A DNA stretch of 64,000 bases. Origin: Patescibacteria group bacterium. GTDB taxonomy: Bacteria > Patescibacteriota > Microgenomatia > Levybacterales > GWA1-39-11. The stretch lies in contig DASZRC010000026.1 in NCBI GenBank assembly GCA_035549315.1, positions 988 through 64,987 on the forward strand, given 5' to 3'. Positions 17,443-61,641 of the stretch are shown piece after piece; position 1 is the stretch's first letter; each line of letters starts with the position of its first letter. The notes beneath the pieces are model-generated. The model ran no database searches. It had not been told where the DNA came from and worked only from the letters and a program-made list of their open reading frames with translations. Position numbers and translations under genes: made by a program.

Positions 17443-19008
17443 ATGCGGATAACCCGTAATCATTTTCTGTTTTTAGGTGTAGCACTGGCAATATTAGCTT
17501 TGTACATAGTTCTTCGTTTGCTTAACATTCTAAATCTTCCTTTATTTACAGATGAGGCAATCTACATAAGGTGGGCTCAAATTGCAAAACAGGACGCTTC
17601 ATGGCGATTTATTGCTTTGGTTGACGGGAAAGGCCCCTCTTTTGTATGGGCAGAAATGCTAACTCTCAAACTGTTTAAGGATCCACTTTTTGCAGGCAGA
17701 ATGGTTTCCGTAATAACGGGTATATTTACTACAATCGGATTATTCTTTTTGGGCAACGAGGTGTTTCGTGAAAAACAAAAAGGAAAAGAATACAAAGTAT
17801 TTTCATTTACAAAAGAAACAGTGCCTTACGGTCTTCTTTCAAGTTTAATCTACGTTCTTTATCCGTTTGGATTGGTATATGACAGAATGGCTCTCTATGA
17901 CAGCATGGTTGGTATGTTTGCAGTTTGGTCTTTGTACTTGCTATTTTTATTGGTTAGAACCTTAAGGCTTGATGTAGCTTTAATAACCGGTATAGTTGCC
18001 GGAGGAGGTTTATTAACAAAAGTTAATGCAACGTTTTCTCTCTATTCAATTCCATTTTTACTTCTTATTTTTGATTGGAAACAAAAAAATGTTAAATCAC
18101 GTCTGGCAAAGTTTGTAGGCTTGTCTTTGGTAATAGTTATCCTTGCATATGGCATATATTCAATCCTTCGTCTATCGCCGTTTTACCACATAATTGGTGA
18201 GAAGACGACCCTTTTTGTGTATCCCTTTGGAGAATGGATACATCACCCCTTTACCTATTTTTATAGTAACGCCAGAGCGCTTCTTAATTGGTTCTTTATA
18301 TACATGTCTGTCCCTTCAATTATTCTTATAATAGCTTCATTTTTTGTAAATAAGAAAAACTTTATGGAAAAAGCGGTTCTATTTTTATGGTTTATTTTTC
18401 CAATTACAGCACTTGCCCTTTTTGGAAAATTAATCTACCCAAGGTTTATTTTATTTATGACATTATCATTAATACCTCTAATTTCATATTCAATTATTAA
18501 TTTGGTTGATAAATACAAAAGTCCTTTGATAAGAGCTCTAATTATTCTTTTCGCTTTTGTAATGTATATTTATGCTGATTATTTTATAATCTTTAACTTT
18601 GCTTATGCTCCAATCCCCGGAGCAGATCTTGGACAATATATTAACGGATGGAGTGCCGGGAATGGTGTTAAACAATCCGTTGCTTACTTCAACGAGCAAG
18701 CCAAAGATAAAAAAATATATATTGTTACGGAAGGTACATTCGGGCTTATGCCTTATGGGTTGGAAATGTACTTAGTTAATAACCCAAATATTAAAATTCA
18801 AGCTTTATGGCCAATAAATGATAATACTCCAAAAGATATTTTGGATAAAGCCAAGGTAATGCCAACATATGCCGTCTTTTATCAGCCATGCCCATCTTGC
18901 GGGAATGAAGGCGGAAAGATGCCTCCATTATGGAAGGGTGAAAAAGTTTTATCCGAGCAGCAAGGTATAGGTAACTCTTTCTACAGCGTTTATAGAATTC
19001 TTCCATGA
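17443..19008 (+). CDS. GT-C glycosyltransferase, PMT_2/GT39 (ArnT/Pmt-like) family
   Basis: The first loop has PLFTDEAIYIRWAQ, a DE motif. GPSFVW...DPLFAGRMVSVITG resembles the PMT_2 HPPL..RLPSAL.G region. Many TM segments. The track ORF starts at TTG 17431. Confidence 0.55.
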   Translation: MRITRNHFLFLGVALAILALYIVLRLLNILNLPLFTDEAIYIRWAQIAKQDASWRFIALVDGKGPSFVWAEMLTLKLFKDPLFAGRMVSVITGIFTTIGLFFLGNEVFREKQKGKEYKVFSFTKETVPYGLLSSLIYVLYPFGLVYDRMALYDSMVGMFAVWSLYLLFLLVRTLRLDVALITGIVAGGGLLTKVNATFSLYSIPFLLLIFDWKQKNVKSRLAKFVGLSLVIVILAYGIYSILRLSPFYHIIGEKTTLFVYPFGEWIHHPFTYFYSNARALLNWFFIYMSVPSIILIIASFFVNKKNFMEKAVLFLWFIFPITALALFGKLIYPRFILFMTLSLIPLISYSIINLVDKYKSPLIRALIILFAFVMYIYADYFIIFNFAYAPIPGADLGQYINGWSAGNGVKQSVAYFNEQAKDKKIYIVTEGTFGLMPYGLEMYLVNNPNIKIQALWPINDNTPKDILDKAKVMPTYAVFYQPCPSCGNEGGKMPPLWKGEKVLSEQQGIGNSFYSVYRILP

Positions 19009-21404
19009 AGAGTAAATTAATCTTGGTTTTATTGTTTGCTGGAATAATATCCATTGTATTTTTTCATCAAATTCTTAAAGGGTGGATGCCTTTCCCCGGA
19101 GATTTATTAGTTGGTAATCAAGAGCCATACAAATCTTATTCATACCAAGGGTTTGCCCCCGGCGCAGTTCCTAATAAAGCACAAGGTCCGGATGTAATAA
19201 AACAACTTGTTCCCTGGAAGAAATTTGCCATAGATAGTTTTAAAAAAAATCAAATTCCCTTTTGGGACCCCTATAATTTTTCAGGCAATCCTTTAATGGC
19301 AAATTTTCAAAGCGGAGTTTTTTATCCGCTAAATGTCATTTTCTTGACGTTGTCATTTCCAAGTGCTTGGACTATCTATATAGTTCTTACTCCAATTCTT
19401 TCAATATTTTTTATGTATTTATTCCTGGACAGGTTAAAGCTCAAGCCTGCTGCAAGTTTACTTGGTGGAATAAGCTTTTCTTTCTGTCTATACATGGGGG
19501 TGTGGATGGAATATGGAAATATAGGGCACACGCTTTTGTGGTTGCCGTTAATTTTATTTTTAGTTGATAGGTTTATAGATAAGCCTACGCGCTTAGATTT
19601 TTTGGGAATAGTAATTTCTTGTTTGTTGTCTATTCTTGCCGGTTATATTCAGGGAGTATTTTATATTTATGCAGTAGTTGTAATTTATTATTTTGCAAAA
19701 AGTATAAGTCTTAAAAAGATAGATAGAAAAAAGTCTTTATTTTTCTTACTAGCGCTTTTATTTCCGGTACTAATCGCGCTTCCGCAAATTTTACCAACTC
19801 TCGGGCTTTTTGTATATTCCACAAGGGGTAATTATACTTTGGATCAAATTCAAAAAAATCTTAATCCTATTTATTATTTAATAACAACTATTATCCCGGA
19901 CTTTTTTGGTAACCCGGCATCTAGAAATTTTTGGTTTAACGGTACGTATATTGAAAGGGTTTCTTATTTTGGTTTGATTCCTTTTGTCTTTGCAATTTTT
20001 GCTATTTCAACTTTATATAAAAAAATTGAAGTAAGAATATTTTCAATACTATTTGTTTTTACTTTGTTAATATCAACCGACATTTTTGTTACCAGATTTT
20101 TTTATCTAATTCCTATTCCGGTAATCTCAACAACAGTTGCAACAAGAATTCTTTCTATATTTAGTTTTTCGGGAGCAGTTCTTGCGGCTTATGGATTTAA
20201 TCATTTATTGGATCTAAAAGATAAAAAGAAGTTTTATATTATTTCTTCAATTGCCTTTATTTTTATTGCAGGGCTTTTTGTTTATGTAAATATCTATCCC
20301 AAAATCTCCAACAATGCTAATTTGATTAATGATTTTCAAACTTCAAAACGAAACATTATTATTCCAATGGCCACTATAATTTTGTTAATGCTTTCAACTT
20401 TTGCGCTTTTTCTAAAAAACTTTTCCAAGAGAAACTATAAATCATATTTATATATAATTTTAATATTAGTTATTTCATCTTTTGAGCTTTTTTATTATTT
20501 TCAAAAGATCACGCCATTTTCTCCAAAAGAATTTTTATATCCTCAAACTCCAGTTACCAAATTTTTAAAGGAAGAAGCGGGTATAAATAGAGCATGGGGA
20601 TACGGGTCTGCCTATATGGAGAGTAATTTCCAAACATTTGATAATACTTATTCAACAGAGGGTAATGATCCGCTTCACATAAAAAGTTACACAGAATTAC
20701 TTGCTGCAAGCAAGGATGGTAAGATCCCCAATATGTTGCCAAGGCCGGATGCAAATATTGCACCGGGATTTGGTAAGAGTGATTTAGTCTCTAATCTGTA
20801 TAGGAAAAAAGTGTTAGATATTACTGGCGTAAAATATATAATCAATAAAGATGAGAGTATTAATGGTAAATTTAACCCTGACTACACAACTTTTCCTGAA
20901 GATAAATATAAATTAGTCTGGCAGGAAGGTTATTGGCAGGCCTATGAAAATCTTAATGCTACGCCACGTTTTTTTGTTACAAATAATTACCAAGTAATAG
21001 ACGGTAATAAGGTTCTAGAGAAAATATTTGATAAAACTTTTGATGAAAAAAGGCAAATAGTTTTATCATCTAATCCGGGTATTAAGTCAGGGGTTTCATC
21101 AGGGAGTGCAAGACTTGTCTTCTATTCACCCAACAAAATTATAATAGATACAAATTCCAAAGTTCCTGCCCTTCTTTTTCTATCTGATAATTTCTATCCG
21201 GATTGGTCAGCAAGCGTTAATGGAAAAGAGGCTAAAGTTTTTCTGGCTGATTATACATTTAGAGCAGTTCCAGTCTCCAAAGGAAGCAGTAGGGTTATTT
21301 TTGAATTTAAAGCTAAAAAATTCTACTATGGATTATATATATCAATTGCCTCCATATTTATGCTGTTAGTTACATTGTTGGCAATGAATAAATATGAAAA
21401 ATAA
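19005..21404 (+). CDS. YfhO family membrane glycosyltransferase (GT-C)
   Basis: PFWDPYNFSGNPLMANFQSGVFYPLN is the YfhO signature. About 800 aa with an N-terminal TM bundle plus a C-terminal extracytoplasmic domain (YPDW...NG...G). Confidence 0.7.
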   Translation: MKSKLILVLLFAGIISIVFFHQILKGWMPFPGDLLVGNQEPYKSYSYQGFAPGAVPNKAQGPDVIKQLVPWKKFAIDSFKKNQIPFWDPYNFSGNPLMANFQSGVFYPLNVIFLTLSFPSAWTIYIVLTPILSIFFMYLFLDRLKLKPAASLLGGISFSFCLYMGVWMEYGNIGHTLLWLPLILFLVDRFIDKPTRLDFLGIVISCLLSILAGYIQGVFYIYAVVVIYYFAKSISLKKIDRKKSLFFLLALLFPVLIALPQILPTLGLFVYSTRGNYTLDQIQKNLNPIYYLITTIIPDFFGNPASRNFWFNGTYIERVSYFGLIPFVFAIFAISTLYKKIEVRIFSILFVFTLLISTDIFVTRFFYLIPIPVISTTVATRILSIFSFSGAVLAAYGFNHLLDLKDKKKFYIISSIAFIFIAGLFVYVNIYPKISNNANLINDFQTSKRNIIIPMATIILLMLSTFALFLKNFSKRNYKSYLYIILILVISSFELFYYFQKITPFSPKEFLYPQTPVTKFLKEEAGINRAWGYGSAYMESNFQTFDNTYSTEGNDPLHIKSYTELLAASKDGKIPNMLPRPDANIAPGFGKSDLVSNLYRKKVLDITGVKYIINKDESINGKFNPDYTTFPEDKYKLVWQEGYWQAYENLNATPRFFVTNNYQVIDGNKVLEKIFDKTFDEKRQIVLSSNPGIKSGVSSGSARLVFYSPNKIIIDTNSKVPALLFLSDNFYPDWSASVNGKEAKVFLADYTFRAVPVSKGSSRVIFEFKAKKFYYGLYISIASIFMLLVTLLAMNKYEK

Positions 21405-22941
21405 ATACATAATACTTGGTCTACTTATTTTATTGCTAATTCCATCTGTATGGTTTCTAGCAAAAAGCGGATTCGTTCTAACAGATGATGGAAACTGGAT
21501 GATAATTCGTTTCTCAGCATTTTACCAGGCTTTACGGGATGGACAATTTCCCGTTAGGTTTCTATCCAGGCTTAACTTTTCTTATGGATATCCTGTTGCT
21601 AATTTTTTGTATCCGGGCTTTATGTATATTGGTGTTCCAATAAAGCTTGCCGGTTTTAGTTTTGAACAGACAATAAAGGCAATTATTGCTGCCTCTTTTA
21701 TAGGTGGGGGAGTTTTTACATATTTTTGGCTTAAGAAGATTTTTGATGATATAAGTTCTTTTTTCGGGGCGATTTTATATACCTACGCTCCTTATCATTT
21801 GTTCGATGCATACAAGAGAGGGTCAGTTGGAGAAGTATTGTCTCTTGCGGTTTTGCCATTTGTTCTTTGGCAAATAGAGAGGGGCAGTATTTTCTGGATG
21901 GCAATTGGTATTGCTGCTTTAATAATTTCCCACAATACATTGGCGATACTCTTCTTGGGGTTTGTTATTGTTTACGTTTTTGCCAAAAGTTATGGTGTAA
22001 AGAAAAACAAAAAAAACATAGAAAACTATATTTTGGCTTTGGTTATGGGGCTTACCTTATCTGCTTTCTTTTGGCTTCCGGCAGTTTTTGAGCTAGGCTA
22101 TACGGTATTTTCATCAACTAAAATATCTGATTATTCCAAATATTTTGCAGACATAAGCCTTATTGGTATACCAACGTTTATCGTAATGGTAGCTGCATTG
22201 ATTTTGTTTGTTGTAAATAAATTAAAGCCCCAGAAAAATCTGCTCACAATTGCGGTATTTTTAATGGGTATTCTATCTATATATATGTCATCACAATTCT
22301 CATCATTTATTTGGGCTTATTTGCCTGTATCTTTTATTCAATTTCCGTTTAGGGTTTTATCGGTTACAATAATTTGCTTTGCTTATCTTTCTGCTTTTGC
22401 CCTAAATCAAACAAGAAATATCTACAAAATTGTATTTGGCTCAATTCTTCTAGTAGGTTGTTTATACATATCTATGAATACTATCTTTTATCCTAAACTT
22501 GTTAATAATGATGATTCTTTCTACTCTACAAATGAGGCAACTACAACGGTTATGGATGAATATATGCCGACTTGGGTTAAGGTAAAGCCCACTTCCCATC
22601 CGGATGATAGGATATTTATATTAAAGGGGCAGGGGGATGTTCAGAATATTATTAATGATTCCAATACTATTACTTTTGATTACTTGTCAAAGTCGCCATC
22701 TGTTGTGAGGATAAATACAATTTATTATCCCGGTTGGAAAGCATATTCAGGAAATAATGAAAAGGCCATTTTCTATGACAATAATCAAGGCTTAATGGAC
22801 CTAAAGTTAGAAGGCGGAAATCAAAAAATAAAGCTTATATTTGGTGAGACTCCAATTAGGGTTCTGGCAGATTTTGTGTCACTAATTACTTTATTGGTTT
22901 TAATAGCATCGGAAATTAAAAAATTTGACTTCAATAAATAA
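21394..22941 (+). CDS. polytopic membrane protein, PTPS-related-domain (PF10131-like) family, GT-C-like
   Basis: Family blocks: DDGNW..RF..F.QALRDGQFPVRF, YKRGSVGEV, ISHN, and C-terminal YYPGWK. Confidence 0.5.
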   Translation: MKNKYIILGLLILLLIPSVWFLAKSGFVLTDDGNWMIIRFSAFYQALRDGQFPVRFLSRLNFSYGYPVANFLYPGFMYIGVPIKLAGFSFEQTIKAIIAASFIGGGVFTYFWLKKIFDDISSFFGAILYTYAPYHLFDAYKRGSVGEVLSLAVLPFVLWQIERGSIFWMAIGIAALIISHNTLAILFLGFVIVYVFAKSYGVKKNKKNIENYILALVMGLTLSAFFWLPAVFELGYTVFSSTKISDYSKYFADISLIGIPTFIVMVAALILFVVNKLKPQKNLLTIAVFLMGILSIYMSSQFSSFIWAYLPVSFIQFPFRVLSVTIICFAYLSAFALNQTRNIYKIVFGSILLVGCLYISMNTIFYPKLVNNDDSFYSTNEATTTVMDEYMPTWVKVKPTSHPDDRIFILKGQGDVQNIINDSNTITFDYLSKSPSVVRINTIYYPGWKAYSGNNEKAIFYDNNQGLMDLKLEGGNQKIKLIFGETPIRVLADFVSLITLLVLIASEIKKFDFNK

Positions 22942-22942
22942 A

Positions 22943-24664
22943 ATGAAAATTAAGAAATATTTACCAGACATTGTGTATTTAGCTGTTTATTTTATCCTGG
23001 GCTTATTAACAATTCTTCCTTTCTTTAAGCCGGGCTTTTTTGCATTCCATGACGACGTTCAGGTTTCAAGATTCTATGAGATGGGGCAAGCTTTGATATC
23101 TGGACAATTTCCAGTGAGATGGGTTGGGGATTTGGGTTATGGATTTGGTTATCCAATATTTAATTTTTACTCTGTGCTCCCATATTATATAGGTGGTTTT
23201 ATAAATGTATTTGGCGCGGACGCTTTAATTGCAGCAAAAACGGTTTTTGTAATTGGAATTTTGCTTTCTGGATTATCCATGTTTTTTCTAATCAAAGAAT
23301 TTTTTGGTAGACTACCTGCTTTGGTGGCATCAATTGCGTATTTATACTTTCCATATCATGCTGTGAATATCTATGTCAGGGGAGATCTTGCTGAGCTTTT
23401 TGCTTATGCTATCCTTCCTTTGGTTTTTTTGGGACTTTTAAAAATTCATTACTCAAAGGCTAACTTGATTCCTAAGGCGGCAATCATTATTTTGTCTTTG
23501 TCTCTTTTTGCTTTAATAATCTCCCACAATCTATCGGCCTTAATGATGGGAATTTTTATAACTATTTTTGTAGTTGTTTCATTAGTTGCTACAAAAAATA
23601 AAGAAATATATAAATGGTATTTAATTTCATTCTTAATCGCCTTTTTGCTATCTGCTTTTTATACAATACCGGTTCTTTTTGAAATGAAATATACAAATGT
23701 ACTATCACAAGTTGGAATAGGTGGGGGATCAAACTATAAGGACCATTTTCTTTGCATTAACCAATTGTGGAATAGTCCTTGGGGATTTGGTGGATCAACC
23801 AAAGGGTGTATTGCTGATGGGCTTAGTTTTAGATTGGGGAAGATTTATATTTTACTAACTCTTATATCAATTGCCCTGGCAGGATTTTATTTTAAAAAAA
23901 TTAAAGACAAGGCAATGATTTTATTTATTTCAATTGCCTTCCTTCTATTCAGTATATTTATGACTTTGGAGGTCTCGGGCATTATATGGTCTATCCCATA
24001 TATGAATTTTTTGCAGTTCCCATGGAGATTTTTAAATTTTGCGGGATTGTTTATGGCAACTTTAATTGGAATTTCTGTTTATTTAATAGAAAAGGTTTCT
24101 AAAAAAGAAATCTATACTATTGTTGCAGGTCTTATGGTGATAGGAATAATATTCTTTAATGCTAAGTTATTTGCGCCACAGGAGTATCTTAATAGGGAAG
24201 CATCATATTATACAAATAAATATTATCTCAATTGGACTGCATCAAAAATATCGGATGAATATCTCCCTAAAAATTTTAAAAAGCCCACCAATTCTCATGA
24301 CGTGTGGAATTATCCCTTTGAGGCTATACTGCCAAATGGCAACTTGCCCTTACCAAATAAGTTAGTTACAAAAACTCCAACAGATTTGGTTGCTACAACA
24401 AATTTGGCAAATAATTTTGGAGTTGTGGCAAAAACTCCCTATTTTCCTGCATGGAATATTTATATAGATGGTAAAAAAGTGAATTATAAGATTAAAAATG
24501 GAGAAATGTATTTTTCGTTGCCTGCAGGACCCCATAAGATAGAAATTCGTTTTGAACAGACAAGAATTGAGCTTTTGGGTGATTTATTAACTGTTATTGG
24601 AGTTGTAGCTATTTCTATTGTTATAATAAATAAGTCCAAATTTTATGGCAGAAAAACTTCCTGA
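22943..24664 (+). CDS. polytopic membrane protein, PTPS-related-domain-like family (paralog)
   Basis: FHDDVQVSRFYEMGQALISGQFPVRWVGDLGYGFGYPIFNFY, YVRGDLAE, ISHN, YFPAWNIYIDG...GPHKIEIRF. The track ORF starts at 22925. Confidence 0.5.
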   Translation: MKIKKYLPDIVYLAVYFILGLLTILPFFKPGFFAFHDDVQVSRFYEMGQALISGQFPVRWVGDLGYGFGYPIFNFYSVLPYYIGGFINVFGADALIAAKTVFVIGILLSGLSMFFLIKEFFGRLPALVASIAYLYFPYHAVNIYVRGDLAELFAYAILPLVFLGLLKIHYSKANLIPKAAIIILSLSLFALIISHNLSALMMGIFITIFVVVSLVATKNKEIYKWYLISFLIAFLLSAFYTIPVLFEMKYTNVLSQVGIGGGSNYKDHFLCINQLWNSPWGFGGSTKGCIADGLSFRLGKIYILLTLISIALAGFYFKKIKDKAMILFISIAFLLFSIFMTLEVSGIIWSIPYMNFLQFPWRFLNFAGLFMATLIGISVYLIEKVSKKEIYTIVAGLMVIGIIFFNAKLFAPQEYLNREASYYTNKYYLNWTASKISDEYLPKNFKKPTNSHDVWNYPFEAILPNGNLPLPNKLVTKTPTDLVATTNLANNFGVVAKTPYFPAWNIYIDGKKVNYKIKNGEMYFSLPAGPHKIEIRFEQTRIELLGDLLTVIGVVAISIVIINKSKFYGRKTS

Positions 24665-25358: not shown

Positions 25359-25367
25359 TCATACAAT

Positions 25368-26807
25368 ATGGACTCCACGAAGGATATAGTAAAACACAGC
25401 ATTAATGGGGTAGTGGCTTTAATATCTAAGACTATAATTCTTGAGATCTTTTTTGGTACAACATCAATAATAATATTCAGCGTACTTACACAGGCTGAAG
25501 TAGGATTGTATGCCGTTGTAATATCTATTCAGAGGGTTATTAGTTTTGTTACAGATTTTGGATTTGGTGCCGCTTTGGTGCAGAAAAAGGACGAAATCAC
25601 CACAAAAGATTTACACACAACATTTACGCTACAAGCATCATTAACATTTGGTATTTTTTTATTGACGCTGATTTTAAGACCCCAGCTTATGAGTTTCTTC
25701 CATCTTGGGAATGAAGGTTACCTACTTTTACTGGTTCTAGTTTTTACAATATTTTTATCTTCCTTCAAGGTTATTCCCTCAATACTTTTGGAGCGTAAAA
25801 TTCACTTTCATAAACTTATAATTCCACAAACCGTTGAGACAATTGCATTTAACATAGTGCTTCTTTCTCTGGTTTTGAATCATTTTGGAATAAATAGTTA
25901 TACTTGGGCTTTCCTAATATCTAGTATTATAAGTATTCCCGTATACTATTTTGTTTCTCCTTGGGAGGTTGGGGTTGGTGTACACAAAGAATCATTAACC
26001 CATCTTAAGTTTGGACTGCAATTTCAGGCAAAAAACGTTTTGGCAACGATTAAAGACGATTTTATAACTGTAATACTGGCAAAGTTTTTAACTTTTACTC
26101 AAATTGGATTTATTGGATTTGCACAAAACCTAGCATTCTATCCTTATAGATATTTTGTAGATAGCGTGACTAGAGTAACCTTTTCAACTTATGCAAGAAT
26201 GCAAGGAGACTTAGATCTTCTAAAGAAGACAATAGAAAAATCCTTATTTTTTGTAAGCCTTATAATGTTTCCTGTTTTGGTGGGGCTAATGGTGACTGCT
26301 CCATATATTATAGAGTTCTTCCCAAAGTGGAATGGTAAATGGGAGCCTGCTTATCTGAGCTTAGTGTTCTTTGCTCTAAATGCGATGATCTCATCTCTTT
26401 CCGGAATTCTTGTTAACGTTTTAGATTCAAACGGCAAGGTAAAGCTCACACTGAGGCTCATGGGAATTTGGACAGCTCTTACATGGATACTAACCTTTTT
26501 GTTCATATACCTATGGGGATATAACGGTGTAGCTATAGCGTCATTTATGGTTACATTAACGATTTTCTACACTGTCTATTTGGTAAAGCAAATCGTAGAT
26601 TTTTCTATGCTCAGATCTATTTATCAACCTCTTATATCTGCTGTTATAATGGGTTTGGGAGTATATTTCCTTTGTCGTATATTTGCGACAAACCTTTTTA
26701 CTTTGGTAATTGTTAGTGGGGTTGGTGCAGCAATTTACCTAACTATAATGTACTTTATGATTGGAAAAGAAATCATCCAAGATATTAAATTAATCTTAAA
26801 AAGATGA
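25368..26807 (+). CDS. oligosaccharide/polysaccharide flippase (Wzx-like, MOP superfamily)
   Basis: About 12-14 TM segments. The polysaccharide-biosynthesis-protein N-terminal pattern is present (LISKTIILEIFFGTTSIIIFSVLTQAEVGLYAVV). Confidence 0.6.
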   Translation: MDSTKDIVKHSINGVVALISKTIILEIFFGTTSIIIFSVLTQAEVGLYAVVISIQRVISFVTDFGFGAALVQKKDEITTKDLHTTFTLQASLTFGIFLLTLILRPQLMSFFHLGNEGYLLLLVLVFTIFLSSFKVIPSILLERKIHFHKLIIPQTVETIAFNIVLLSLVLNHFGINSYTWAFLISSIISIPVYYFVSPWEVGVGVHKESLTHLKFGLQFQAKNVLATIKDDFITVILAKFLTFTQIGFIGFAQNLAFYPYRYFVDSVTRVTFSTYARMQGDLDLLKKTIEKSLFFVSLIMFPVLVGLMVTAPYIIEFFPKWNGKWEPAYLSLVFFALNAMISSLSGILVNVLDSNGKVKLTLRLMGIWTALTWILTFLFIYLWGYNGVAIASFMVTLTIFYTVYLVKQIVDFSMLRSIYQPLISAVIMGLGVYFLCRIFATNLFTLVIVSGVGAAIYLTIMYFMIGKEIIQDIKLILKR

Positions 26808-27730: not shown

Positions 27731-27731
27731 A

Positions 27732-28640: not shown

Positions 28641-28656
28641 CTTATAGATTTAAAAT

Positions 28657-33661: not shown

Positions 33662-33781
33662 GTGACTAATTTACCACAGATTGATCCCGTAATCAACGAT
33701 TTATATTTCTTTTGTACAGACAAAAGAAACAAAAACTGCCATCGCGGTTTTGTTCATGCTTTCTATTTTAAGTCGCTTATC

Positions 33782-50796: not shown

Positions 50797-50799
50797 TTT

Positions 50800-51588: not shown

Positions 51589-51596
51589 ATTAACTT

Positions 51597-52598: not shown

Positions 52599-53115
52599 AA
52601 TTTATCGTTTCCTCGTTATAGCGAGCTTATTTTTAACCGTTTTTTCCAAACAAGTTTTTGCTGAATCTTCATATGTTCTTCCATATCCCGGGACTATGCC
52701 AGGGAGCAAGTTATATAAGCTAGACTTAATAAAAGAAAAGTTGTCTGAGTATTGGTATTTTGGTGATTTTGCTCAGTTCGACTATAACCTTCAACTTGCA
52801 GATAAATACTTAGTTGAGGCAAAGACCCTTTTTGAGTACAAACAATATCTACTAGGCTACAATGCTTTGGAAAAATCTAATAGCTACTTTAAAAACATTC
52901 CGCCAACCTTAGTAAATGCTAAGAGAAATGGTAAGGATACCTCAGATAAAAAAGCGATACTAGACCAAGCAGCTAAAAAACACGTAGAAGAACTGATAAT
53001 CATGAAGAAAAATGTTCCCCAGGTATTTAATTGGTCTCCTGAAAAAGCTGCTCCTACAAACTTAAACCTATGGAAGTTGATAGATGATTCAATTAAGGCA
53101 AGAAACTCAATATGA
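52591..53115 (+). CDS. secreted hypothetical protein (DUF5667-like)
   Basis: Signal peptide MSRIYRFLVIASLFLTVFSKQVFA, then LPYPGTMPGSKLYKLDLIKEKL. Confidence 0.4.
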   Translation: MSRIYRFLVIASLFLTVFSKQVFAESSYVLPYPGTMPGSKLYKLDLIKEKLSEYWYFGDFAQFDYNLQLADKYLVEAKTLFEYKQYLLGYNALEKSNSYFKNIPPTLVNAKRNGKDTSDKKAILDQAAKKHVEELIIMKKNVPQVFNWSPEKAAPTNLNLWKLIDDSIKARNSI

Positions 53116-54242
53116 TAAGAAAAATATATTATTTGTATTTAGTACTTTTTTTAACTTTTTCTATATTTACATATCTTTTTGTTGATAGTAACTTTTTTTA
53201 CCTCAAAAGCCTTGTTACGGGTATTGGGCTGCATGACAGGATATTGGTTTCATTAATATACCTTTTGTATATGGTTTTATTTTTTATACTTTATTTTTTA
53301 TTGATAAAAAATATTAATAGAGTGCCTGCTGTAATAAAAAGCTCAATACTTCCAACTGTAATTGTTTTAGCTTTTTTAATTTTCTCCTATCCCACTATTA
53401 TTTCATATGATGTTTTTAATTATGCTGCTACCGCCAAGGTAACATTTGGTTATAGAGAGAATCCGTATATAATAATGCCAATAGAATTTAGGCAAGATAG
53501 TTTATTAAGGTTCACGCAGGCTGCCAATAAGATAGCCCTTTATGCTCCATTCTGGATATTAATAAGTTTTATACCTTTTGTTCTTGCGTTCGGTAATTAT
53601 TTAGTATTAATTTACCTATTCAAACTTTTAGCGGCAATATTTTTAATCGGGTGTGTTTACTTACTTTTGAAGTTAAGTGATAAACCAAATCCCGCTTTGT
53701 ATTTTGCTCTAAGCCCACTTGTTTTAGTTGAGACAATTGTTTCTGGGCACAATGATATTGTTATGATGTTTTTAGCATTAGCCGCGTTTTATTTTGCTAA
53801 GAATAAAAAGATTTTAATTTCCTTAGTATTTATTTTCCTATCAATATTAATAAAGTATTCAACAATTGTTTTATTACCTACGCTAATATACTCAATCTAT
53901 TTAATTGCAAGAAATGTAAAAATTGATTGGGATAGGATATATTTTTTAAATTTTGTATTATTATTTATAGTTTTTTTACTTTCTCCCATTCGTGCCGAAA
54001 TTTATCCTTGGTATGCAATATGGCCATTATCTTTTCTTGTACTCACTAAAAAAAGAAATTTAATTTACCTTTTTACATTCTTTTCTTTTTGTTTGATGGC
54101 TAGATATATTCCCTATATGTTAACAGGTGACAATTTTGGCTTAACCCCAAACATTAAGATGTTTATGACATTCTTTCCAACAGGAATTATAGCTTTGTAT
54201 ATGATATTCAAAAAAAAGTTGTTGGCGAATAATAGTTTATGA
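53112..54242 (+). CDS. polytopic membrane protein, GT-C-like (paralog of 16045..17196)
   Basis: ISYDVFNYAATAKV ... VSGHNDIVMMFLALAAFYF. Confidence 0.4.
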   Translation: MIRKIYYLYLVLFLTFSIFTYLFVDSNFFYLKSLVTGIGLHDRILVSLIYLLYMVLFFILYFLLIKNINRVPAVIKSSILPTVIVLAFLIFSYPTIISYDVFNYAATAKVTFGYRENPYIIMPIEFRQDSLLRFTQAANKIALYAPFWILISFIPFVLAFGNYLVLIYLFKLLAAIFLIGCVYLLLKLSDKPNPALYFALSPLVLVETIVSGHNDIVMMFLALAAFYFAKNKKILISLVFIFLSILIKYSTIVLLPTLIYSIYLIARNVKIDWDRIYFLNFVLLFIVFLLSPIRAEIYPWYAIWPLSFLVLTKKRNLIYLFTFFSFCLMARYIPYMLTGDNFGLTPNIKMFMTFFPTGIIALYMIFKKKLLANNSL

Positions 54243-55903: not shown

Positions 55904-56177
55904 TTTTAAATCTTGGTATGTTTTATTATATATATATGTCTTAAAGTCAGACAAGGATAAAATGTTCTATACTGGTTATACTAAAGATTTAAAATTAAGA
56001 TTTAAGCAACACATGGATAAAAAGGTTCAATCTACTAAAAAGAGGGGAAGGCTTAGGCTAATTTATTACGAAGCATGCTTGAATCAACAAGATGCTACCC
56101 ATAGGGAAAAATATCTCAAAACGTATTTGGGAAAAATGTTTTTAAGGAATAGACTTAAATCTTATTTAACAGGGTAA
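55887..56177 (+). CDS. GIY-YIG nuclease family protein. No canonical start codon upstream of the conserved N-terminal strand, so it may be non-canonically initiated or N-terminally decayed.
   Basis: The track ORF 55962..56177 (MFYTGYTKDLKLRFKQH...RLIYYEACLNQQDATHREKYLK) lacks the first GIY beta-strand. The same frame upstream, back to the stop at 55884, encodes SWYVLLYIYVLKSDKDK, which supplies that strand. That stretch contains no ATG, GTG or TTG. Confidence 0.45.
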   Translation, partial: LTLLNNFKSWYVLLYIYVLKSDKDKMFYTGYTKDLKLRFKQHMDKKVQSTKKRGRLRLIYYEACLNQQDATHREKYLKTYLGKMFLRNRLKSYLTG

Positions 56178-56181
56178 AAAT

Positions 56182-57219
56182 ATGAAAGTAGGAATTGACA
56201 TATCACCATTATCTAGTGGACACAAGGTTCGCGGTGTAGGGTTTTACGTTAAGCTCTTAAAAGATAATATTGCAGAATTAGATAAAAAAAACGAATACTC
56301 TTTTTTTGAGGGAAACCCGCCGCCTAATCTTGATTTAGTCCATTATCCCTATTTTGATCCTTTTCAAATTACGCTTCCAAGTCATTTCTCAAATAAAACC
56401 ATGGTAACAGTTCATGATCTAACGCCAATTGTATTTGGGCAGCACTTTCCGGCCGGGCTTATGGGTAAACTAAGGTGGGCATTTCAAAAAAAAAGATTAA
56501 AAAGGGTAGACTCAATACTTGCGGATTCGGAATGTTCTAAGAAAGATATAGTAAAGATAACAGGAATTAGTGAAGAAAAAATAAAAGTTGTTTACCTTGC
56601 TGCAAATAAAATTTATAAAAAAATTAAATTGGGTAGCAATGCTTCACAAGTAAAAAAGAAATTCAGTTTGCCGGATGAGTTCGTTTTATATGTGGGGGAC
56701 GCCACATGGAATAAAAACTTACCAAAGCTTATCGAATCAATTAAGAAAACTTCATACAAGCTCGTTTTGGTGGGTAAGGTTTGGGAAAATACCTTTGAAA
56801 CGGTTTCCGATAATCCTTGGAATGAAGATCTTAAGAAAGTTTTGAAAGAGATTGATCAGGATGAGCAATTTATAAAATTAGGATTTGTTTCAGATGAAGA
56901 TTTGGCAATAGTTTATAATTTGGCCACTGTTTTTATAATGCCCTCAATATATGAAGGCTTTGGTCTTCCGGTTCTTGAGGCAATGAGTTGTGGTACTCCT
57001 GTTATTACTACAAGGGGCGGAAGTTTGCCGGAAGTTGCTGGTCAAGCAGGCTATTATGTTGATGTTGAAGACGTAGAGAATATAAGAGAAGGCATAAATG
57101 CTATGATGACAGACAAAAAATTACGCGATTTATTTTCAAAAAAAAGCATAGAACAATCTAAAAAATTCTCAATTAAGAAAATGATTACCGATACGGTTTC
57201 TTCTTATGCCTCTGTATGA
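56182..57219 (+). CDS. GT4 glycosyltransferase
   Basis: EGFGLPVLEAMSCGTPVITTRGGSLPEV. Confidence 0.75.
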   Translation: MKVGIDISPLSSGHKVRGVGFYVKLLKDNIAELDKKNEYSFFEGNPPPNLDLVHYPYFDPFQITLPSHFSNKTMVTVHDLTPIVFGQHFPAGLMGKLRWAFQKKRLKRVDSILADSECSKKDIVKITGISEEKIKVVYLAANKIYKKIKLGSNASQVKKKFSLPDEFVLYVGDATWNKNLPKLIESIKKTSYKLVLVGKVWENTFETVSDNPWNEDLKKVLKEIDQDEQFIKLGFVSDEDLAIVYNLATVFIMPSIYEGFGLPVLEAMSCGTPVITTRGGSLPEVAGQAGYYVDVEDVENIREGINAMMTDKKLRDLFSKKSIEQSKKFSIKKMITDTVSSYASV

Positions 57220-58484
57220 ATAAGATAAGAGAGATTATCAAAAACCCTCTAATATTTGGGAGCTCAATCATTTTAATAGGGTCATTGGCTGCTAACTTGG
57301 GTCATTATCTGTTTAATCTAATCTTGGGAAGGTGGCTTTTAACACCTTCTCAGTATGGTCTTGTAGTTTCACTAGTTTCTGTTACAGTTCTATTCTCTGT
57401 TTTTCAGCTTGCCCTTACCGGTATTTTTGCCAAATTTTCTGCCCAATTTGAAGCTTCAAAAGATAAAATTAGCCTTTCAGACCTAATTAAAAAAGGGTTT
57501 AGCTTAACCCTCTTAGTTTCCTCTCTTATCCTAGTTATTTTAATCATATTTTTTAAGTCTTTTTCAGATTTTCTGCACGTCAATAACATATTCATAGTTT
57601 TGCTAACTTTTGCATATATCTTTCTATCTATTCTCTCATCCTTGCCTATGGGAATATTGCAGGGTAGAGTAAGGGTATATGTAATATCATTTCTAAATAT
57701 TTCCAATGCAATAGTTAAGCTTATTGTGGGGGTTGGATTGGTACTTCTGGGTTATAAGGTAACCGGAGCAATGATTGGAATTGTCTTGTCTATTATCATT
57801 ATGCTTGTCATGGGCCTTTTCTTTATAAGAAAGAATGTAATTAAAAAAACTGACAAAAGAGAAAATGAACAAAAACTCTTGGTAGAAGAATTAAAAAAAT
57901 ATGGTGTTAAATTTTTCTTTGCAACTCTTGGAATAACGATGTTTACGAGCATGGATGTTATACTTGCCAGACATTTTTTCTCTCCTCTTATTGCCGGACA
58001 GTACGCAGCGCTTGCGTTAATGGGTAAGGCAATATTTTATCTAACCTTTCCAATTTATTTTGTTTTTTTCCCTCTTGTGGCACAGAAAAAAGCGAAAAAA
58101 GAAAAAGTTCACAATTTATTGATACAAGGTGCATTCCTTATACTTACCGTATCAATTCTTTCCAGTATTTTCTATTTTATTTATCCCCACATAGTGCTAA
58201 AGGTATTTTTCCCAAAGCCAGAGTACGCAGTTCTCGCAAAATATTTAGGAATATTTTCTATATTTATATTAATTTTTTCCATTGCAAATCTATTTAACAA
58301 TTTTCTTCTTTCAATCGGTAAAACAAATATCTACTTGATCAACTTGTTTTGTGCGCTTGTAATGATAATACTTGTCTATATTTTCCACTCCGCACTTATC
58401 CAAATAATTTATGCTTTAATTGGAACTTCGCTTTTACTTTTCATTTCCCTTTTTATATACTACTGGTACAATGGCCGCGATTAA
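57216..58484 (+). CDS. oligosaccharide/polysaccharide flippase (Wzx-like, MOP superfamily)
   Basis: About 12 TM segments with the polysaccharide-biosynthesis-protein-type N-terminus. Confidence 0.55.
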   Translation: MNKIREIIKNPLIFGSSIILIGSLAANLGHYLFNLILGRWLLTPSQYGLVVSLVSVTVLFSVFQLALTGIFAKFSAQFEASKDKISLSDLIKKGFSLTLLVSSLILVILIIFFKSFSDFLHVNNIFIVLLTFAYIFLSILSSLPMGILQGRVRVYVISFLNISNAIVKLIVGVGLVLLGYKVTGAMIGIVLSIIIMLVMGLFFIRKNVIKKTDKRENEQKLLVEELKKYGVKFFFATLGITMFTSMDVILARHFFSPLIAGQYAALALMGKAIFYLTFPIYFVFFPLVAQKKAKKEKVHNLLIQGAFLILTVSILSSIFYFIYPHIVLKVFFPKPEYAVLAKYLGIFSIFILIFSIANLFNNFLLSIGKTNIYLINLFCALVMIILVYIFHSALIQIIYALIGTSLLLFISLFIYYWYNGRD

Positions 58485-59223
58485 ACTATTTTCTCTGGTT
58501 CTGCCTGTTTATAAACAAAGCAATACAATTGTTAAGAATATAAATGAGTTGGAAAGTGTCCTCAAGACCTTGCCTTTCAAATCAGAACTTATTATAGTTC
58601 TCGATGGACAAGATCTGGAAACAAGCAGAAAAATTAACTCTTTAATCCAAAAAAATAAAAAAGGAAATATCAAATTTTATGAATACGAATTAAACCAAGG
58701 CAAAGGGTATGCGGTAAAGTACGGAGTCTCAAAAGCAAAAGGAGATATAATTGGTTTTATAGATGCAGGTCTTGATATCAATCCATCAGAAATAAGTTTA
58801 ATGATAAATCTTATGGAGTGGAATGATGCAGATATAATAGTTGGTAGCAAGCTTCACCCGGAATCAAAAGTTAACTACCCTTTTGCGAGAAAAGTTTTGT
58901 CTTGGGGATATAGAACCTTTACTCACCTCCTTTTTGGATTTACGGTAAGAGACACTCAAGTTGGATTAAAGATTTTTAAAGGTAAGGTTGCAAGGGATGT
59001 TTTTCCCAAAATCGTTGTAAAAAGATTTGCCTTTGATATCGAGGTTTTGGCCGTATCTTATAGGTTGGGATACAAAAAAATATTTGAAGCTCCTGTTGTT
59101 TTAGACTTCAAAAATGGTACTATTACATCTAGTAATTTTTGGAGAATAATATTTTGGATGCTTTGGGATACTATGGCTGTATTCTACAGAATCAACATCC
59201 TCCGTTATTACGATCGTAAATGA
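58471..59223 (+). CDS. GT2 polyprenyl-phosphate sugar synthase (DPM1-like)
   Basis: FSLVLPVYKQSN...LIIVLDGQD...GFIDAGLDINP...IVGSKLH...QVGLKIFK. Start is set at the ATG at 58471 rather than the track start 58420. Confidence 0.65.
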   Translation: MAAIKLFSLVLPVYKQSNTIVKNINELESVLKTLPFKSELIIVLDGQDLETSRKINSLIQKNKKGNIKFYEYELNQGKGYAVKYGVSKAKGDIIGFIDAGLDINPSEISLMINLMEWNDADIIVGSKLHPESKVNYPFARKVLSWGYRTFTHLLFGFTVRDTQVGLKIFKGKVARDVFPKIVVKRFAFDIEVLAVSYRLGYKKIFEAPVVLDFKNGTITSSNFWRIIFWMLWDTMAVFYRINILRYYDRK

Positions 59224-60326
59224 ACATATTGATACTAAATTGGCGGGATCCGGCTAATCCTAAAAGTGGTGGGGCAGAAACAGTAACAATGGAACACGCT
59301 AGTGCTTGGGTTAAGGCTGGGCACAAAGTTACCTGGTTCTCATCTATGTTTAATGGAGCAAAGCAAATTGAAATTATTCGCGGGGTCGAGGTTTTTAGGA
59401 GAGGAAATCCTCTCACTGTTTATATTCTAGCGCCACTTTTTTACCTCTTTTCTAAAAGATCATTTGATTTGGTATTAGATGAAATACATGGGTTGCCATT
59501 TCTCACTCCTCTTTATATTAAAAAACCTAAATTAGTTCTAATACATGAAGTAGCGGGTGAGATATGGTCTTATATGTTTCCTTTCCCAATTAGTATGGTA
59601 GGCAAATTCGCGGAGTCTTTATATTTTAAACTATACAAAAAAATATACTTTTGGGTCCCTAGCAAGTCTACAATGGATGACTTAATTAAGATGGGTATAA
59701 AAAAAAGATATATAAAGCTAATAAACGATGGTATAGACAACAAGCCACTTACTAAGCTTCCTATTAAAGAAAAAACCCCAACATTCATTTTTGTTAGCAG
59801 AATAGTTAAGATGAAAGGTGTTGAGGAGGTAATAAAATCATTTTTTTTCATATTAAAAGAATTAAAAGATGGGAATTTGTGGATTGTTGGTGATGGTGAC
59901 CCGGAGTATATAGAATACCTCAAGGAAGTTTTAAGGAGTTATTCAATTAGTGCAAAAGTTAAGTTTTTTGGAAGAGTATCAAATGCAGAAAAGTTCAAGC
60001 TTATGAGTAAGGCAAATTTGCTTTTACATGCATCAAGGAAAGAAGGATGGGGACTAGTGGTGATTGAGGCAGCAAGTCAGGCAACACCATCTGTAGTATA
60101 TGATGTTTCCGGTCTTAGAGATTCGGTCATTAACGGCAAAACCGGAATTGTCATTACAGAAAATAAGCCTGAAAGTATGGCAAGAGCTGCAATTGATCTG
60201 ATCAAAGATAATAGAAAGTACAATAAATACCAAAATAATTGTTTAGCGTGGGCAAAAAGATTAGAATGGGATAAGCCAATAAAAGAAAGTTTAGAGCTTA
60301 TAAAAGATGTTGAAAAGGGTATTTAG
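59220..60326 (+). CDS. GT4 glycosyltransferase (paralog of 61753..62850)
   Basis: MNILILNWRDPANPKSGGAE ... EGWGLVVIEAASQATPSVVYDVSGLRDSV. Confidence 0.75.
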   Translation: MNILILNWRDPANPKSGGAETVTMEHASAWVKAGHKVTWFSSMFNGAKQIEIIRGVEVFRRGNPLTVYILAPLFYLFSKRSFDLVLDEIHGLPFLTPLYIKKPKLVLIHEVAGEIWSYMFPFPISMVGKFAESLYFKLYKKIYFWVPSKSTMDDLIKMGIKKRYIKLINDGIDNKPLTKLPIKEKTPTFIFVSRIVKMKGVEEVIKSFFFILKELKDGNLWIVGDGDPEYIEYLKEVLRSYSISAKVKFFGRVSNAEKFKLMSKANLLLHASRKEGWGLVVIEAASQATPSVVYDVSGLRDSVINGKTGIVITENKPESMARAAIDLIKDNRKYNKYQNNCLAWAKRLEWDKPIKESLELIKDVEKGI

Positions 60327-61641
60327 TAAATCATCCAATATATTTTTGATTCTCGTTGCAATCCTCTTATTGGGGTTTTATCTAAGAGTGAATAACCTTT
60401 ATACTTGGCCTCGCCTTGGAGCTACCTTTGATGAATATGCTTGGACTTGGGAAGGTATGAATTTAATACAAAAAGGAGTTCCTGTGTCTTGGTCTCCACA
60501 CCCCCAATACAAAACAGCTAAAGATATTATTTACCAAAAAACACATTTTAGAATAGTTAAGCCGTTCTTGGAACATCCTCCGGTTTTTGGTTTAGTTGCG
60601 GGTTCATTTGCAATACTTAATGGGGCATCAGATATGTACCATTTATCAATAAATAATATCCGTCCGCTTGCTGTAATTTTGGGATTAATATCAATACTTC
60701 TTGTGTATTTACTTGTGGAAGAAGTATATGACAAAAAAACCGCATTGCTCTCCTCACTTTTATATGCAACTATTCCAACAGTTGTTGTTGGATCAAGAAT
60801 TGTACAAAATGAAAACTTTTTTATCCCTGTTTGGTTATTAAGCCTCTGGTTAATCGCAAAATATATTAAAAATAAGAAAAGCCTATATAGAAACCTAGCT
60901 GCTTTACTGTGTGTATTGTTGGTTCTTGCTAAAGTACCTTGGGTTGCTGCTTCCGGTTCGATTTTTTTAATTTTTCTTTACCTCAAGCAATATAAAAACG
61001 CCTTAATTTTCTTTTTAGGACCAATTTTGGGGTTGGCTATATACACAATATACGGATTCTACTATGATTCAAATTTATTTCTTAGCTTGTGGGGTCTTCA
61101 ATTGAATCGTTATGATTTAACATTTAATAGTATTTTTGCAATCTTTACAGAGCCATTTTTGGTTGACAGATATATGGTAGATGGATGGATATATTTTGGT
61201 TGGTTTGCATTTATCTTACTTTTGACAAAAGACATCAAGAAAAACTTTATTATTATTTTTGGGTTACTAGCTTACTTTTCAATCTTTATATTTGCAATTC
61301 CCAATGAACCCGGCCATGGATGGTATAGATATCCATTTTATCCATTTTTAGCAATTTCAATTGCAGTATTTATAATTGACTACTTTAAAAAGAATTTATT
61401 GCTAACTTTTCTTTTTATCATAATGGTAGGTACCTCTTTATTGCAATTATCTTACGGAATTAAATTTGGTTTTTCTTTTAAAGTATTTAGATTATTTCTT
61501 CTATCAACAGGAATTGTGCTAATTCCTTTATTTTTTAAAAACAAAAATATTAAAAAATTATCCTTGTTATATGCTGATGCAATGATTATATTCTTTATTC
61601 TTTTGAATATTTGGGCGGTATTGGAGTATAACGAACAGTGA
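60307..61641 (+). CDS. GT-C glycosyltransferase, PMT_2/GT39-like (short form)
   Basis: ATFDEYAWTWEGMNL is the DE motif. LEHPPVFGLVAGSFAIL is the HPPL-type block. Confidence 0.5.
   Translation: MLKRVFSKSSNIFLILVAILLLGFYLRVNNLYTWPRLGATFDEYAWTWEGMNLIQKGVPVSWSPHPQYKTAKDIIYQKTHFRIVKPFLEHPPVFGLVAGSFAILNGASDMYHLSINNIRPLAVILGLISILLVYLLVEEVYDKKTALLSSLLYATIPTVVVGSRIVQNENFFIPVWLLSLWLIAKYIKNKKSLYRNLAALLCVLLVLAKVPWVAASGSIFLIFLYLKQYKNALIFFLGPILGLAIYTIYGFYYDSNLFLSLWGLQLNRYDLTFNSIFAIFTEPFLVDRYMVDGWIYFGWFAFILLLTKDIKKNFIIIFGLLAYFSIFIFAIPNEPGHGWYRYPFYPFLAISIAVFIIDYFKKNLLLTFLFIIMVGTSLLQLSYGIKFGFSFKVFRLFLLSTGIVLIPLFFKNKNIKKLSLLYADAMIIFFILLNIWAVLEYNEQ

Follow-up and report, generated by a model that had tools for sequence, protein, structure and literature searches.

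We analyzed a cluster of putative membrane glycosyltransferase genes in a 64,000-nucleotide stretch of DNA (hereafter the window) from a Patescibacteria group bacterium of the order Levybacterales (GenBank assembly GCA_035549315.1, contig DASZRC010000026.1, positions 988 to 64,987 of the forward strand), with a G+C content of 32–36%. The cluster spans 48.4 kb (at least 48 kb; window 15287–63693) and reaches the window end, beyond which the contig continues for only ~1.4 kb, and its open reading frames (ORFs) are co-directional and tightly packed or overlapping. Of its 38 plus-strand ORFs, 35 are glycan-related. Based on Pfam, hhalign and NCBIfam, 18 of them resemble glycosyltransferases of the GT-C fold: eight PMT_2-like genes, three of the YfhO family, five PTPS_related and two MptA/B-like, together ~10,070 codons, or ~30 kb of coding sequence and 62% of the cluster. 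These are accompanied by four small glycosyltransferase family 2 (GT2) genes of the polyprenyl-phosphate-sugar synthase class, two MOP (Wzx-type) flippases, a UDP-glucose 4-epimerase (GalE), six other GT2s and four family 4 glycosyltransferases (GT4s). Genes are named below by their start position in the window, and coordinates are collected in Table 1.

An initial annotation had singled out nine of these genes as a multiplied protein-O-mannosylation module of the Ppm/Pmt type, namely five PMT_2-family paralogs (17443, 40527, 44214, 46263 and 60307, hereafter the flagged proteins) and four synthases (15287, 24645, 38181 and 58471), and all nine ORFs are present on the plus strand. We scored the flagged proteins against Pfam at gathering scores of 26.1 bits for PMT_2 (PF13231) and 22.7 bits for PMT (PF02366). 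All five passed PMT_2, as the annotation had proposed, whereas PMT was passed by 40527, 44214 and 60307, always with a lower score than PMT_2, and not by 17443 and 46263. In these searches the proteins were neither assigned to ArnT alone nor left without a GT39/GT83-type match. The idea of five paralogs holds for 40527, 44214 and 46263 (group A), which are true paralogs over their full length in an all-against-all BLAST (40527 shares 31% identity with each of the other two, and 46263 shares 36% with 44214). In contrast, 17443 (group B) and 60307 (group C) are only remote relatives: the former aligns with 44214 at 23% identity over 182 residues only, the latter has no BLAST match to the other four, and both are tied to the trio by profile–profile comparison (97–98% probability; for group B against group A, 97.2–97.9% over ~400 columns). 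The flagged proteins are best filed, at family level only, as PMT_2-superfamily GT-Cs. Close homologs carry the labels "glycosyltransferase family 39 protein" at NCBI, which is also the NCBI name of 17443, and "ArnT-like" at JGI; both are family-level names and not functional assignments.

The five flagged genes are thus real members of the family, but the count missed three further PMT_2-like genes (49468, 47972 and 42275), the three YfhO genes, the five PTPS_related genes and both MptA/B-like genes. Gene 42275 is the most distant candidate, with ~17 hydrophobic segments and no match to a Pfam family. For 60307, the NCBI product is 417 residues long (94% coverage), with its start placed 27 codons after the ATG at 60307; since orthologs of 436–450 residues align from near residue 1, the longer ORF is favored.

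The five motifs quoted in the initial annotation (TDEAIY, RDEAFLGY, WDEVAWGY, WDEAALGY and FDEYAWTW) are present and align with one another, both in a MAFFT alignment and in profile–profile comparison, and the Asp-Glu pair directly follows the first transmembrane segment in all five proteins. The pair is invariant in each ortholog alignment (42 sequences for D36/E37, 37 each for D37/E38 and D42/E43). Among 56 family representatives at 29–55% identity to 44214, E37 never varies and D36 reaches a conservation of at least 90%. Because the N-terminus is positively charged and the first transmembrane segment precedes the pair, the two acidic residues are predicted to face outward. The two D-group proteins, 47972 (D1) and 49468 (D2), retain the aligned Asp, followed by V or Q and not by E. 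As for the HPPL/RLPSA-type block of the initial annotation, the KPP/HPP and R-L-P-S-A blocks can be aligned to their counterparts in ArnT.

Structures were predicted with AF2 for 44214 (pLDDT 85.6, pTM 0.86) and 60307 (pLDDT 90.5, pTM 0.91); for 17443, 40527 and 46263 the link to these models comes from BLAST and hhalign. A C-terminal soluble alpha/beta domain is seen in 44214 and no such domain in 60307. In Foldseek searches against the PDB, the significant matches of both models were GT-C_A enzymes only (AglB/STT3/PglB, ArnT, Emb, Pmt and ALG9/12), at probability 1.0. For 44214 the order was AglB/STT3/PglB, ArnT (template-modelling (TM) score 0.55/0.56, the best size-matched structure), Pmt4, ALG9/12, partial Pmt1/2, AftD and EmbC; for 60307 it was AglB/STT3, ArnT (TMq 0.58) and EmbC (TMq 0.63). 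Pmt enzymes first appeared, with Pmt4, at rank 17 in the search with 44214 and at rank 22 in that with 60307, and Pmt1/2 aligned over 260–300 columns only. These models confirm the GT-C fold, not a specific kinship with GT39.

The PMT_4TMC domain (PF16192) is absent from the five flagged proteins (E ≤ 0.01) and from the 56 family representatives (E ≤ 0.001), as is the MIR domain from both sets. Bacterial Pmt enzymes lack MIR, which sits in a large lumenal loop of eukaryotic PMTs only, so that its absence is not decisive. The sole sequence-level match of the group A profile in the PDB was ArnT (E=6e-4), and searches with the 17443 and 60307 family profiles or with the single 44214 sequence returned no PDB match. 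One might therefore ask whether the PMT_2 enzymes are ArnT-like and glycosylate a membrane lipid or glycolipid anchor instead of a polymer or a protein. The size-matched ArnT structure, the JGI label of the homologs and the closeness of synthase 24645 to ArnC speak for this. Yet only 40527 registered with the ArnT equivalog model (NF009784), at 17 bits where the cut-off is 567, and eight divergent, individually conserved paralogs are hard to square with one lipid target. An outer membrane and lipid A are, in addition, generally taken to be missing from Patescibacteria, and altogether we hold this explanation to be very improbable.

The remaining GT-C-like genes broaden the repertoire. The three YfhO genes share 34–35% mutual identity (BLAST), and the PTPS_related genes are linked to YfhO by hhalign at 99.5% probability. 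Gene 16045, directly downstream of synthase 15287, resembles a family of polyprenol-phosphomannose-dependent alpha-1,6-mannosyltransferases; its pass of the MptB model is marginal and covers a partial stretch, and it reaches 70.5 bits for TIGR03459, below that model's cut-off.

The four small GT2s all passed PF00535, and their best PDB matches were the dolichyl-phosphate mannose synthase (DPMS) 5mlz or ArnC, in agreement with their earlier assignment to the polyprenyl-phosphate-sugar synthases. A joint profile of the four matched P. furiosus DPMS (5mlz) across its entire catalytic domain with 114.5 bits (query 5–241 of 248), followed by GtrB (5ekp) and ArnC. They share 26–32% mutual identity (BLAST), and orthologs of 24645, 38181 and 58471 in other species are 51–64% identical, values that fit several distinct donor sugars, as the initial annotation had suggested. 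Among curated models, the best synthase score was that of 38181 for AglJ (112 bits against a cut-off of 325), with far lower scores for the others. PgfS was the top NCBIfam match of 15287 and 24645 and the second for 38181 and 58471, far below its cut-off. Gene 38181 lies a short way upstream of the PMT_2 run, and this place before the group A genes is kept in most loci.

Two synthases have a flippase as neighbor, an arrangement kept between orthologs in other Levybacteria species (24645–25368 in L048, L061 and L069; 57216–58471 in L078 and L079), and the window holds no ORF for a small flippase of the GtrA/GtcA type. This adjacency, together with the lack of a GtrA-type gene in the window, suggests that the MOP flippases may serve lipid-monophosphate sugars. 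Alternatively, some PMT_2-like paralogs could be Agl23-like (or Agl23-associated) polyprenyl-phosphate-hexose translocators, paired with a synthase lacking a transmembrane anchor as in Haloarcula hispanica Agl22/Agl23, where purified Agl23 moves lipid-linked glycans in liposomes (PMC11182771). TIGR03663 (Agl23) is indeed the best curated NCBIfam match of 40527, 44214, 46263 and 60307, and the small GT2s match the halobacterial dolichyl-phosphate-hexose transferase model NF041391; the lack of a GtrA-type flippase in the window also speaks for this reading. We nevertheless judge such a role very improbable, because the scores (26–40 and 46–59 bits) lie far under the respective cut-offs of 126 and 375 bits, the strict conservation of the extracytoplasmic Asp-Glu pair and other loop residues fits catalysis, and two synthase-adjacent MOP flippases are already present.

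Next, we scanned one genome per GTDB species for relatives of 44214. A relative is encoded at 442 species loci, of which the best 80 are overwhelmingly from Levybacteria, and the family comprises 2,701 clusters at 50% identity (E ≤ 1e-30). Close homologs are named "Patescibacteria group bacterium" and "Candidatus Levybacteria/Levyibacteriota". Many species-representative metagenome-assembled genomes with the cluster (L006, L009, L013 and others) are titled "uncultured Gammaproteobacteria bacterium", and a few Limnocylindrales or Eisenbacteria; the titles are evidently stand-ins or misassignments, the Gammaproteobacteria ones stemming from automated submission.

For synteny, we assigned the ORFs of 53 loci of ~21.6 kb to the families of the window. 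The core order was kept as YfhO–GT4–YfhO–GT2–small GT2–PMT_2 (group A, two to six copies, median 3)–PMT_2-like (group D)–PTPS_related–GT2–GalE–GT4–flippase, with the order of the 40527-type, 44214-type and 46263-type copies retained and 4–11 GT-C-like genes per locus (median 8). Orthologs of each copy are ~46–76% identical across species, whereas paralogs reach at most 36%. The duplications must therefore be old, with every copy maintained in its own right, and this speaks for specificities that are not redundant. On the same grounds, together with the conserved order, a recent tandem amplification was rejected. With its core syntenic across 53 species loci of Candidatus Levybacteria, the arrangement goes back to the ancestor of the lineage and does not represent a local burst. 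What had been described as a five-fold expansion is instead a heterogeneous subset of the 18 GT-C-like genes.

Several other genes and elements lie within or beside the cluster. The GT2s 26804, 32672 and 50800 form a paralogous trio (32–36% mutual identity, BLAST), and the best solved relative of 26804 is GmaR, the Listeria flagellin O-GlcNAc transferase (65.5 bits), followed by SunS-type peptide S-glycosyltransferases, so that the trio may comprise candidate cytoplasmic protein or peptide glycosyltransferases. The GT4 gene 59220 sits between the small GT2 58471 and the PMT_2 gene 60307. A DUF5652 protein (79 residues, two transmembrane segments) is the sole minus-strand gene within the cluster and keeps its place between YfhO and GT4/PMT_2 genes in loci L003 and L004. 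A secreted DUF5667 protein (174 residues) lies between GalE and the MptA/B-like gene 53112, a position kept in many loci, and could be a periplasmic accessory or acceptor-related protein. Two small non-glycan ORFs may be remnants of mobile elements: a 23S_rRNA_IVP four-helix-bundle protein (114 residues) between two PMT_2 paralogs, found among the annotated loci examined only in the same-species contigs L001 and L002, and a truncated GIY-YIG nuclease domain (71 residues).

The two largest intergenic gaps of the cluster are occupied by two copies of a GC-rich noncoding element of ~170 nt (71–80% identity), ~60–70 nt upstream of 17443 and 33934. The core common to both copies is CCCCCTCCGCGATCCAAG-N-CTTGGCCGCT-GACCTCCCCCTG. 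As one G-run is able to pair with either of two C-runs, the element may be a leader or attenuator. Its folding z-scores are weak (−0.2 to −2.5), it has no Rfam match, and JGI metagenomes yielded no exact match to a longer pattern. All 120 matches of a 14-mer from it were chance occurrences in unrelated GC-rich DNA. A promoter and terminator scan of the cluster stayed at chance level in AT-rich DNA and gave no operon boundaries. Upstream of the cluster lie unrelated genes for 4-alpha-glucanotransferase, chromate transporters, AlkZ and DNA repair. The latter include a complete non-homologous end-joining (NHEJ) pair, Ku (259 residues) adjoining a three-domain LigD (819 residues: phosphoesterase, ligase and primase-polymerase), in a reduced candidate phyla radiation (CPR) genome.

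Table 1. Genes and noncoding elements of the window discussed in the text (aa, amino acids; TM-less, without transmembrane segment)
Feature	Position	Strand	Evidence
NHEJ pair, Ku and LigD	7741–10986	+	
Small TM-less GT2, 251 aa	15287–16042	+	PF00535 113.7 bits; PDB: DPMS 5mlz, then GtrB, ArnC; DMD
MptB-like GT-C	16045–17196	+	NF038066 44.6 bits (cut-off 40); weak GT87 match
GC-rich element, copy 1	17205–17371	+	
PMT_2 GT-C, group B, 521 aa	17443–19008	+	PF13231 32.9 bits; TDEAIY, D37/E38
YfhO-family GT-C, 799 aa	19005–21404	+	PF09586 88 bits
PTPS_related, polytopic membrane protein	21394–22941	+	PF10131 39 bits
PTPS_related, polytopic membrane protein	22925–24664	+	PF10131 53 bits
Small TM-less GT2, 237 aa	24645–25358	+	PDB: ArnC 59.9 bits (residues 5–211), then DPMS; DGD
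MOP (Wzx-type) flippase	25368–26807	+	PF13440 155 bits; NF007773 113 bits, below cut-off
GT2, cytoplasmic	26804–27730	+	PF00535
GT2, cytoplasmic	27732–28640	+	PF00535
PTPS_related, 546 aa	28657–30297	+	PF10131 57 bits
YfhO-family GT-C, 773 aa	30294–32615	+	PF09586 121 bits
GT2	32672–33418	+	Pfam; grouped with 26804 by BLAST
DUF5652 protein	33422–33661	−	
GC-rich element, copy 2	33709–33874	+	
GT4	33934–35010	+	Pfam
YfhO-family GT-C, 751 aa	35003–37258	+	PF09586 124 bits
GT2, 308 aa, one C-terminal transmembrane segment	37258–38184	+	PF00535 and PF13641
Small TM-less GT2, 237 aa	38181–38894	+	PDB: DPMS 5mlz 70.6 bits; DAD
PTPS_related, 561 aa	38845–40530	+	PF10131 60 bits
PMT_2 GT-C, group A paralog 1, 553 aa	40527–42188	+	PF13231 35.1, PF02366 27.4 bits; RDEAFLGY
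Distant PMT_2-like GT-C candidate, 650 aa, polytopic	42275–44227	+	hhalign: group A 92.7%, D1 93.9%
PMT_2 GT-C, group A paralog 2, 552 aa	44214–45872	+	PF13231 47.0, PF02366 44.8 bits; WDEVAWGY
23S_rRNA_IVP protein	45914–46258	+	
PMT_2 GT-C, group A paralog 3, 569 aa	46263–47972	+	PF13231 28.3 bits; WDEAALGY
PMT_2-like GT-C D1, 499 aa	47972–49471	+	hhalign: D1–D2 99.9%, D1–A 99.3%
PMT_2-like GT-C D2, 442 aa	49468–50796	+	PF13231 34.4 bits
GT2, 26804 group	50800–51588	+	PF00535 87 bits; 36% identity to 26804
UDP-glucose 4-epimerase GalE	51597–52598	+	TIGR01179 395 bits (cut-off 262)
DUF5667 protein	52591–53115	+	
MptA_B/GT87-like membrane protein	53112–54242	+	29% identity to 16045 (BLAST); precomputed PF26314 MptA_B_family; weak GT87 match
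PTPS_related, 554 aa	54239–55903	+	PF10131 60 bits
GIY-YIG nuclease domain, truncated	55962–56177	+	
GT4	56182–57219	+	PF00534 117.6 bits
MOP (Wzx-type) flippase	57216–58484	+	PF01943 50 bits, PF13440 34 bits
Small TM-less GT2, 250 aa	58471–59223	+	PDB: DPMS 5mlz 35.5 bits (residues 7–210); DAG
GT4	59220–60326	+	PF00534 120.5 bits
PMT_2 GT-C, group C, 444 aa	60307–61641	+	PF13231 51.1, PF02366 23.3 bits; FDEYAWTW
GT4	61753–62850	+	Pfam
GT2, last cluster gene in the window	62857–63693	+	Pfam

Taken together, the flagged genes encode GT-C_A membrane glycosyltransferases within a Levybacteria-conserved cluster that probably builds or decorates mainly a surface glycopolymer or lipoglycan. The proposed pathway has three steps. 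First, judging by homology, the small GT2s of the DPMS/GtrB/ArnC class would charge polyprenyl phosphate with different monosaccharides at the cytoplasmic face, with GalE providing precursors of the UDP-Gal or UDP-Glc type. Second, the lipid-linked sugars would be moved to the outer face, for which the two synthase-adjacent MOP flippases are the best candidates, in a route resembling that of Haloferax AglD/AglR/AglS, in which AglR is the proposed translocator (PMC3871713). Third, as fold and motif suggest, the 18 GT-C-like enzymes would each transfer one sugar from the lipid donors outside, the first-loop Asp-Glu of the PMT_2-like enzymes acting as a putative catalytic or acceptor-activating acid pair. 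The acceptor could be a lipid-linked core made by the cytoplasmic GT4s and GT2s, then elongated and decorated outside the membrane after the model of mycobacterial lipomannan and lipoarabinomannan (LM/LAM) assembly or of three-component decoration in Gram-positive bacteria; some modules may glycosylate surface proteins.

Several observations weigh against this scheme. None of the five GT-Cs or four synthases reached an NCBIfam equivalog cut-off. No transmembrane segment is found in any of the four synthases, unlike the anchored DPMS, GtrB and ArnC; a C-terminal anchor is also absent from human DPM1 and from the mycobacterial Ppm1 catalytic domain, so the four appear compatible with the TM-less synthase subtype only. 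Gene 58471, the weakest DPMS match of the four, has DAG where DXD is expected and may be catalytically atypical. The usual cargo of MOP flippases is pyrophosphate-linked oligosaccharides. Finally, Pfam searches of the window recognized no initiating phosphoglycosyltransferase, polymerase, ligase or acceptor gene, and the glycopolymer acceptor is therefore a contextual guess.

The main competitor is a multiplied protein O-glycosylation, in which the PMT_2-like and perhaps the YfhO enzymes would move polyprenyl-phosphate-linked sugars to Ser/Thr of proteins that are secreted or exposed at the surface, for example pilins, S-layer proteins or disordered tails, with separate paralogs for separate acceptors or sugars. 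The Asp-Glu pair in loop 1 is a PMT hallmark, and PF02366 scores above its cut-off in three of the five genes and in 32 of the 56 representatives. Its scores are, however, always under those of PMT_2, and the absent PMT_4TMC and MIR domains, the sole PDB sequence match to ArnT and a Foldseek order that places Pmt behind the oligosaccharyltransferases (OSTs), ArnT and Emb, with partial Pmt1/2 alignments, all argue against a Ppm/Pmt-like system. In streptococci, PgtC2 and PgfM1 of the YfhO family, partnered by the epimerase PgfE and by GtrB or PgfS as synthase, attach O-linked sugars to Ser/Thr-rich proteins (PMC11092751). Teichoic acids, in turn, are the substrate of YfhO acting with a GtrB-type synthase (PMC5836110). 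Among the matches of the small GT2s, PgfS ranks near the top, far below its cut-off, and GalE lies in the cluster. The action of YfhO on streptococcal proteins and the likeness of 26804 to GmaR and SunS make protein glycosylation a serious rival. On the other side, the MptB-like enzyme, the Wzx-type flippases and the GT4s indicate glycan assembly, and the cluster contains no gene for mannose activation or GDP-mannose and no candidate acceptor protein. As GalE is its only sugar-nucleotide enzyme, mannose, the sugar proposed in the initial annotation, is unproven, and a protein acceptor is not indicated either. We regard protein O-glycosylation as doubtful for the cluster as a whole. A glycopolymer or lipoglycan is favored at least as much, given the MptB-like gene after 15287, the YfhO enzymes, the Wzx-type flippases and the GT4/GT2 genes.

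Comparison with characterized systems reveals partial likeness to each. With ArnT/GT83, of the PMT_2 superfamily, the proteins share the Pfam family, the GT-C_A fold (in groups A and B extended by a soluble C-terminal domain), aligned KPP and R-L-x-S-A blocks, the best size-matched Foldseek hit and, as we infer, a lipid-monophosphate sugar donor. They differ in identity (~12–13%), in staying below the equivalog, in lacking a lipid A context and in comprising many divergent paralogs side by side. Actinobacterial Ppm1/Pmt and eukaryotic PMT (GT39) are alike in the first-loop DE, in PF02366 (three of the five) and in a synthase catalytic domain free of transmembrane segments, and unlike in that PMT_4TMC and MIR are missing here, the Pmt structures are not the closest and a single pair stands in place of many enzymes. 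The GtrA/GtrB/GtrC and CsbB/GtcA/YfhO systems of O-antigens and teichoic acids likewise combine a GtrB-class synthase with GT-Cs, including genuine YfhO, for extracytoplasmic transfer (PMC5836110, PMC11127046). Unlike these three-component systems, the window has MOP flippases and not GtrA/GtcA, TM-less synthases, and 18 GT-Cs to four synthases instead of a 1:1 ratio.

In mycobacterial LM/LAM and arabinogalactan assembly (Ppm1, PimE, MptA, MptB, MptC, Emb and Aft), many GT-Cs make a polymer outside the membrane from few polyprenyl-phosphate-sugar donors; of the present genes, 16045 passes the MptB model, and the best structural matches of 60307 include EmbC. In contrast, the present genes belong to another phylum, lie in a single cluster and are mostly PMT_2, YfhO and PTPS_related instead of Emb or Aft. 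The haloarchaeal AglD/AglR/AglS and Agl22/Agl23 modules pair a small GT2 synthase with a Wzx-like (AglR) or PMT_2-like (Agl23) partner (PMC3871713, PMC11182771), and AglS is a PMT_2-type transferase acting outside, as proposed here; NCBIfam matches to Agl23, AglJ and the Dol-P-hexose transferase are weak, with scores far below the cut-offs, the host is bacterial, and no AglB/OST was recognized in the window. Finally, streptococcal Pgf (PgfS/PgfE/PgfM1/PgfM2) and GtrB/PgtC2 protein O-glycosylation shares with our cluster the grouping of GT2 synthase, epimerase and YfhO-family GT-Cs (PMC11092751). In our cluster, however, PgfS scores stay far under the cut-off, an adhesin or Ser/Thr-rich acceptor gene is missing, and GT-Cs are far more numerous.

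All parts of the cluster come from known families, the polyprenyl-phosphate-sugar/GT-C logic proposed for it is known, and the genes are already routinely annotated, so that no concept is changed. Two features are unusual: the dense packing of 18 GT-C-like genes within 48 kb, and the conservation of the arrangement in a lineage with genomes of ~0.76–1.14 Mb, the sizes of two Levybacteria chromosomes (0.76 and 1.14 Mb). In the literature on GT39, GT-C, mannosyltransferases and envelope glycosylation in Patescibacteria, CPR, Microgenomates and Levybacteria we found no account of such a cluster, although one may exist outside the literature covered.

Patescibacteria are considered metabolically minimal, and Levybacteria are ultra-small bacteria. 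Because ~30 kb of the cluster, its larger part, codes for GT-Cs and the arrangement is conserved across Levybacteria, extracytoplasmic glycosylation appears to be a major, selectively maintained investment. It is possible, if still tentative, that Levybacteria devote ~4–6% of the genome to a mycobacteria-style assembly outside the membrane, in which four lipid-monophosphate sugars, repurposed MOP transporters and ~18 GT-Cs make a complex, lineage-specific lipoglycan or glycoprotein coat. If true, this coat would be the first described in Patescibacteria, with a plausible central role in attachment to hosts or escape from phages. In addition, divergent enzymes of the PMT_2, YfhO and PTPS_related types occur here naturally side by side with their cognate TM-less synthases and MOP flippases, a compact set that could be used in studies of donor and acceptor specificity. 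For the organisms themselves, extracytoplasmic glycosylation probably shapes the surface for host contact, phage recognition and environmental persistence.

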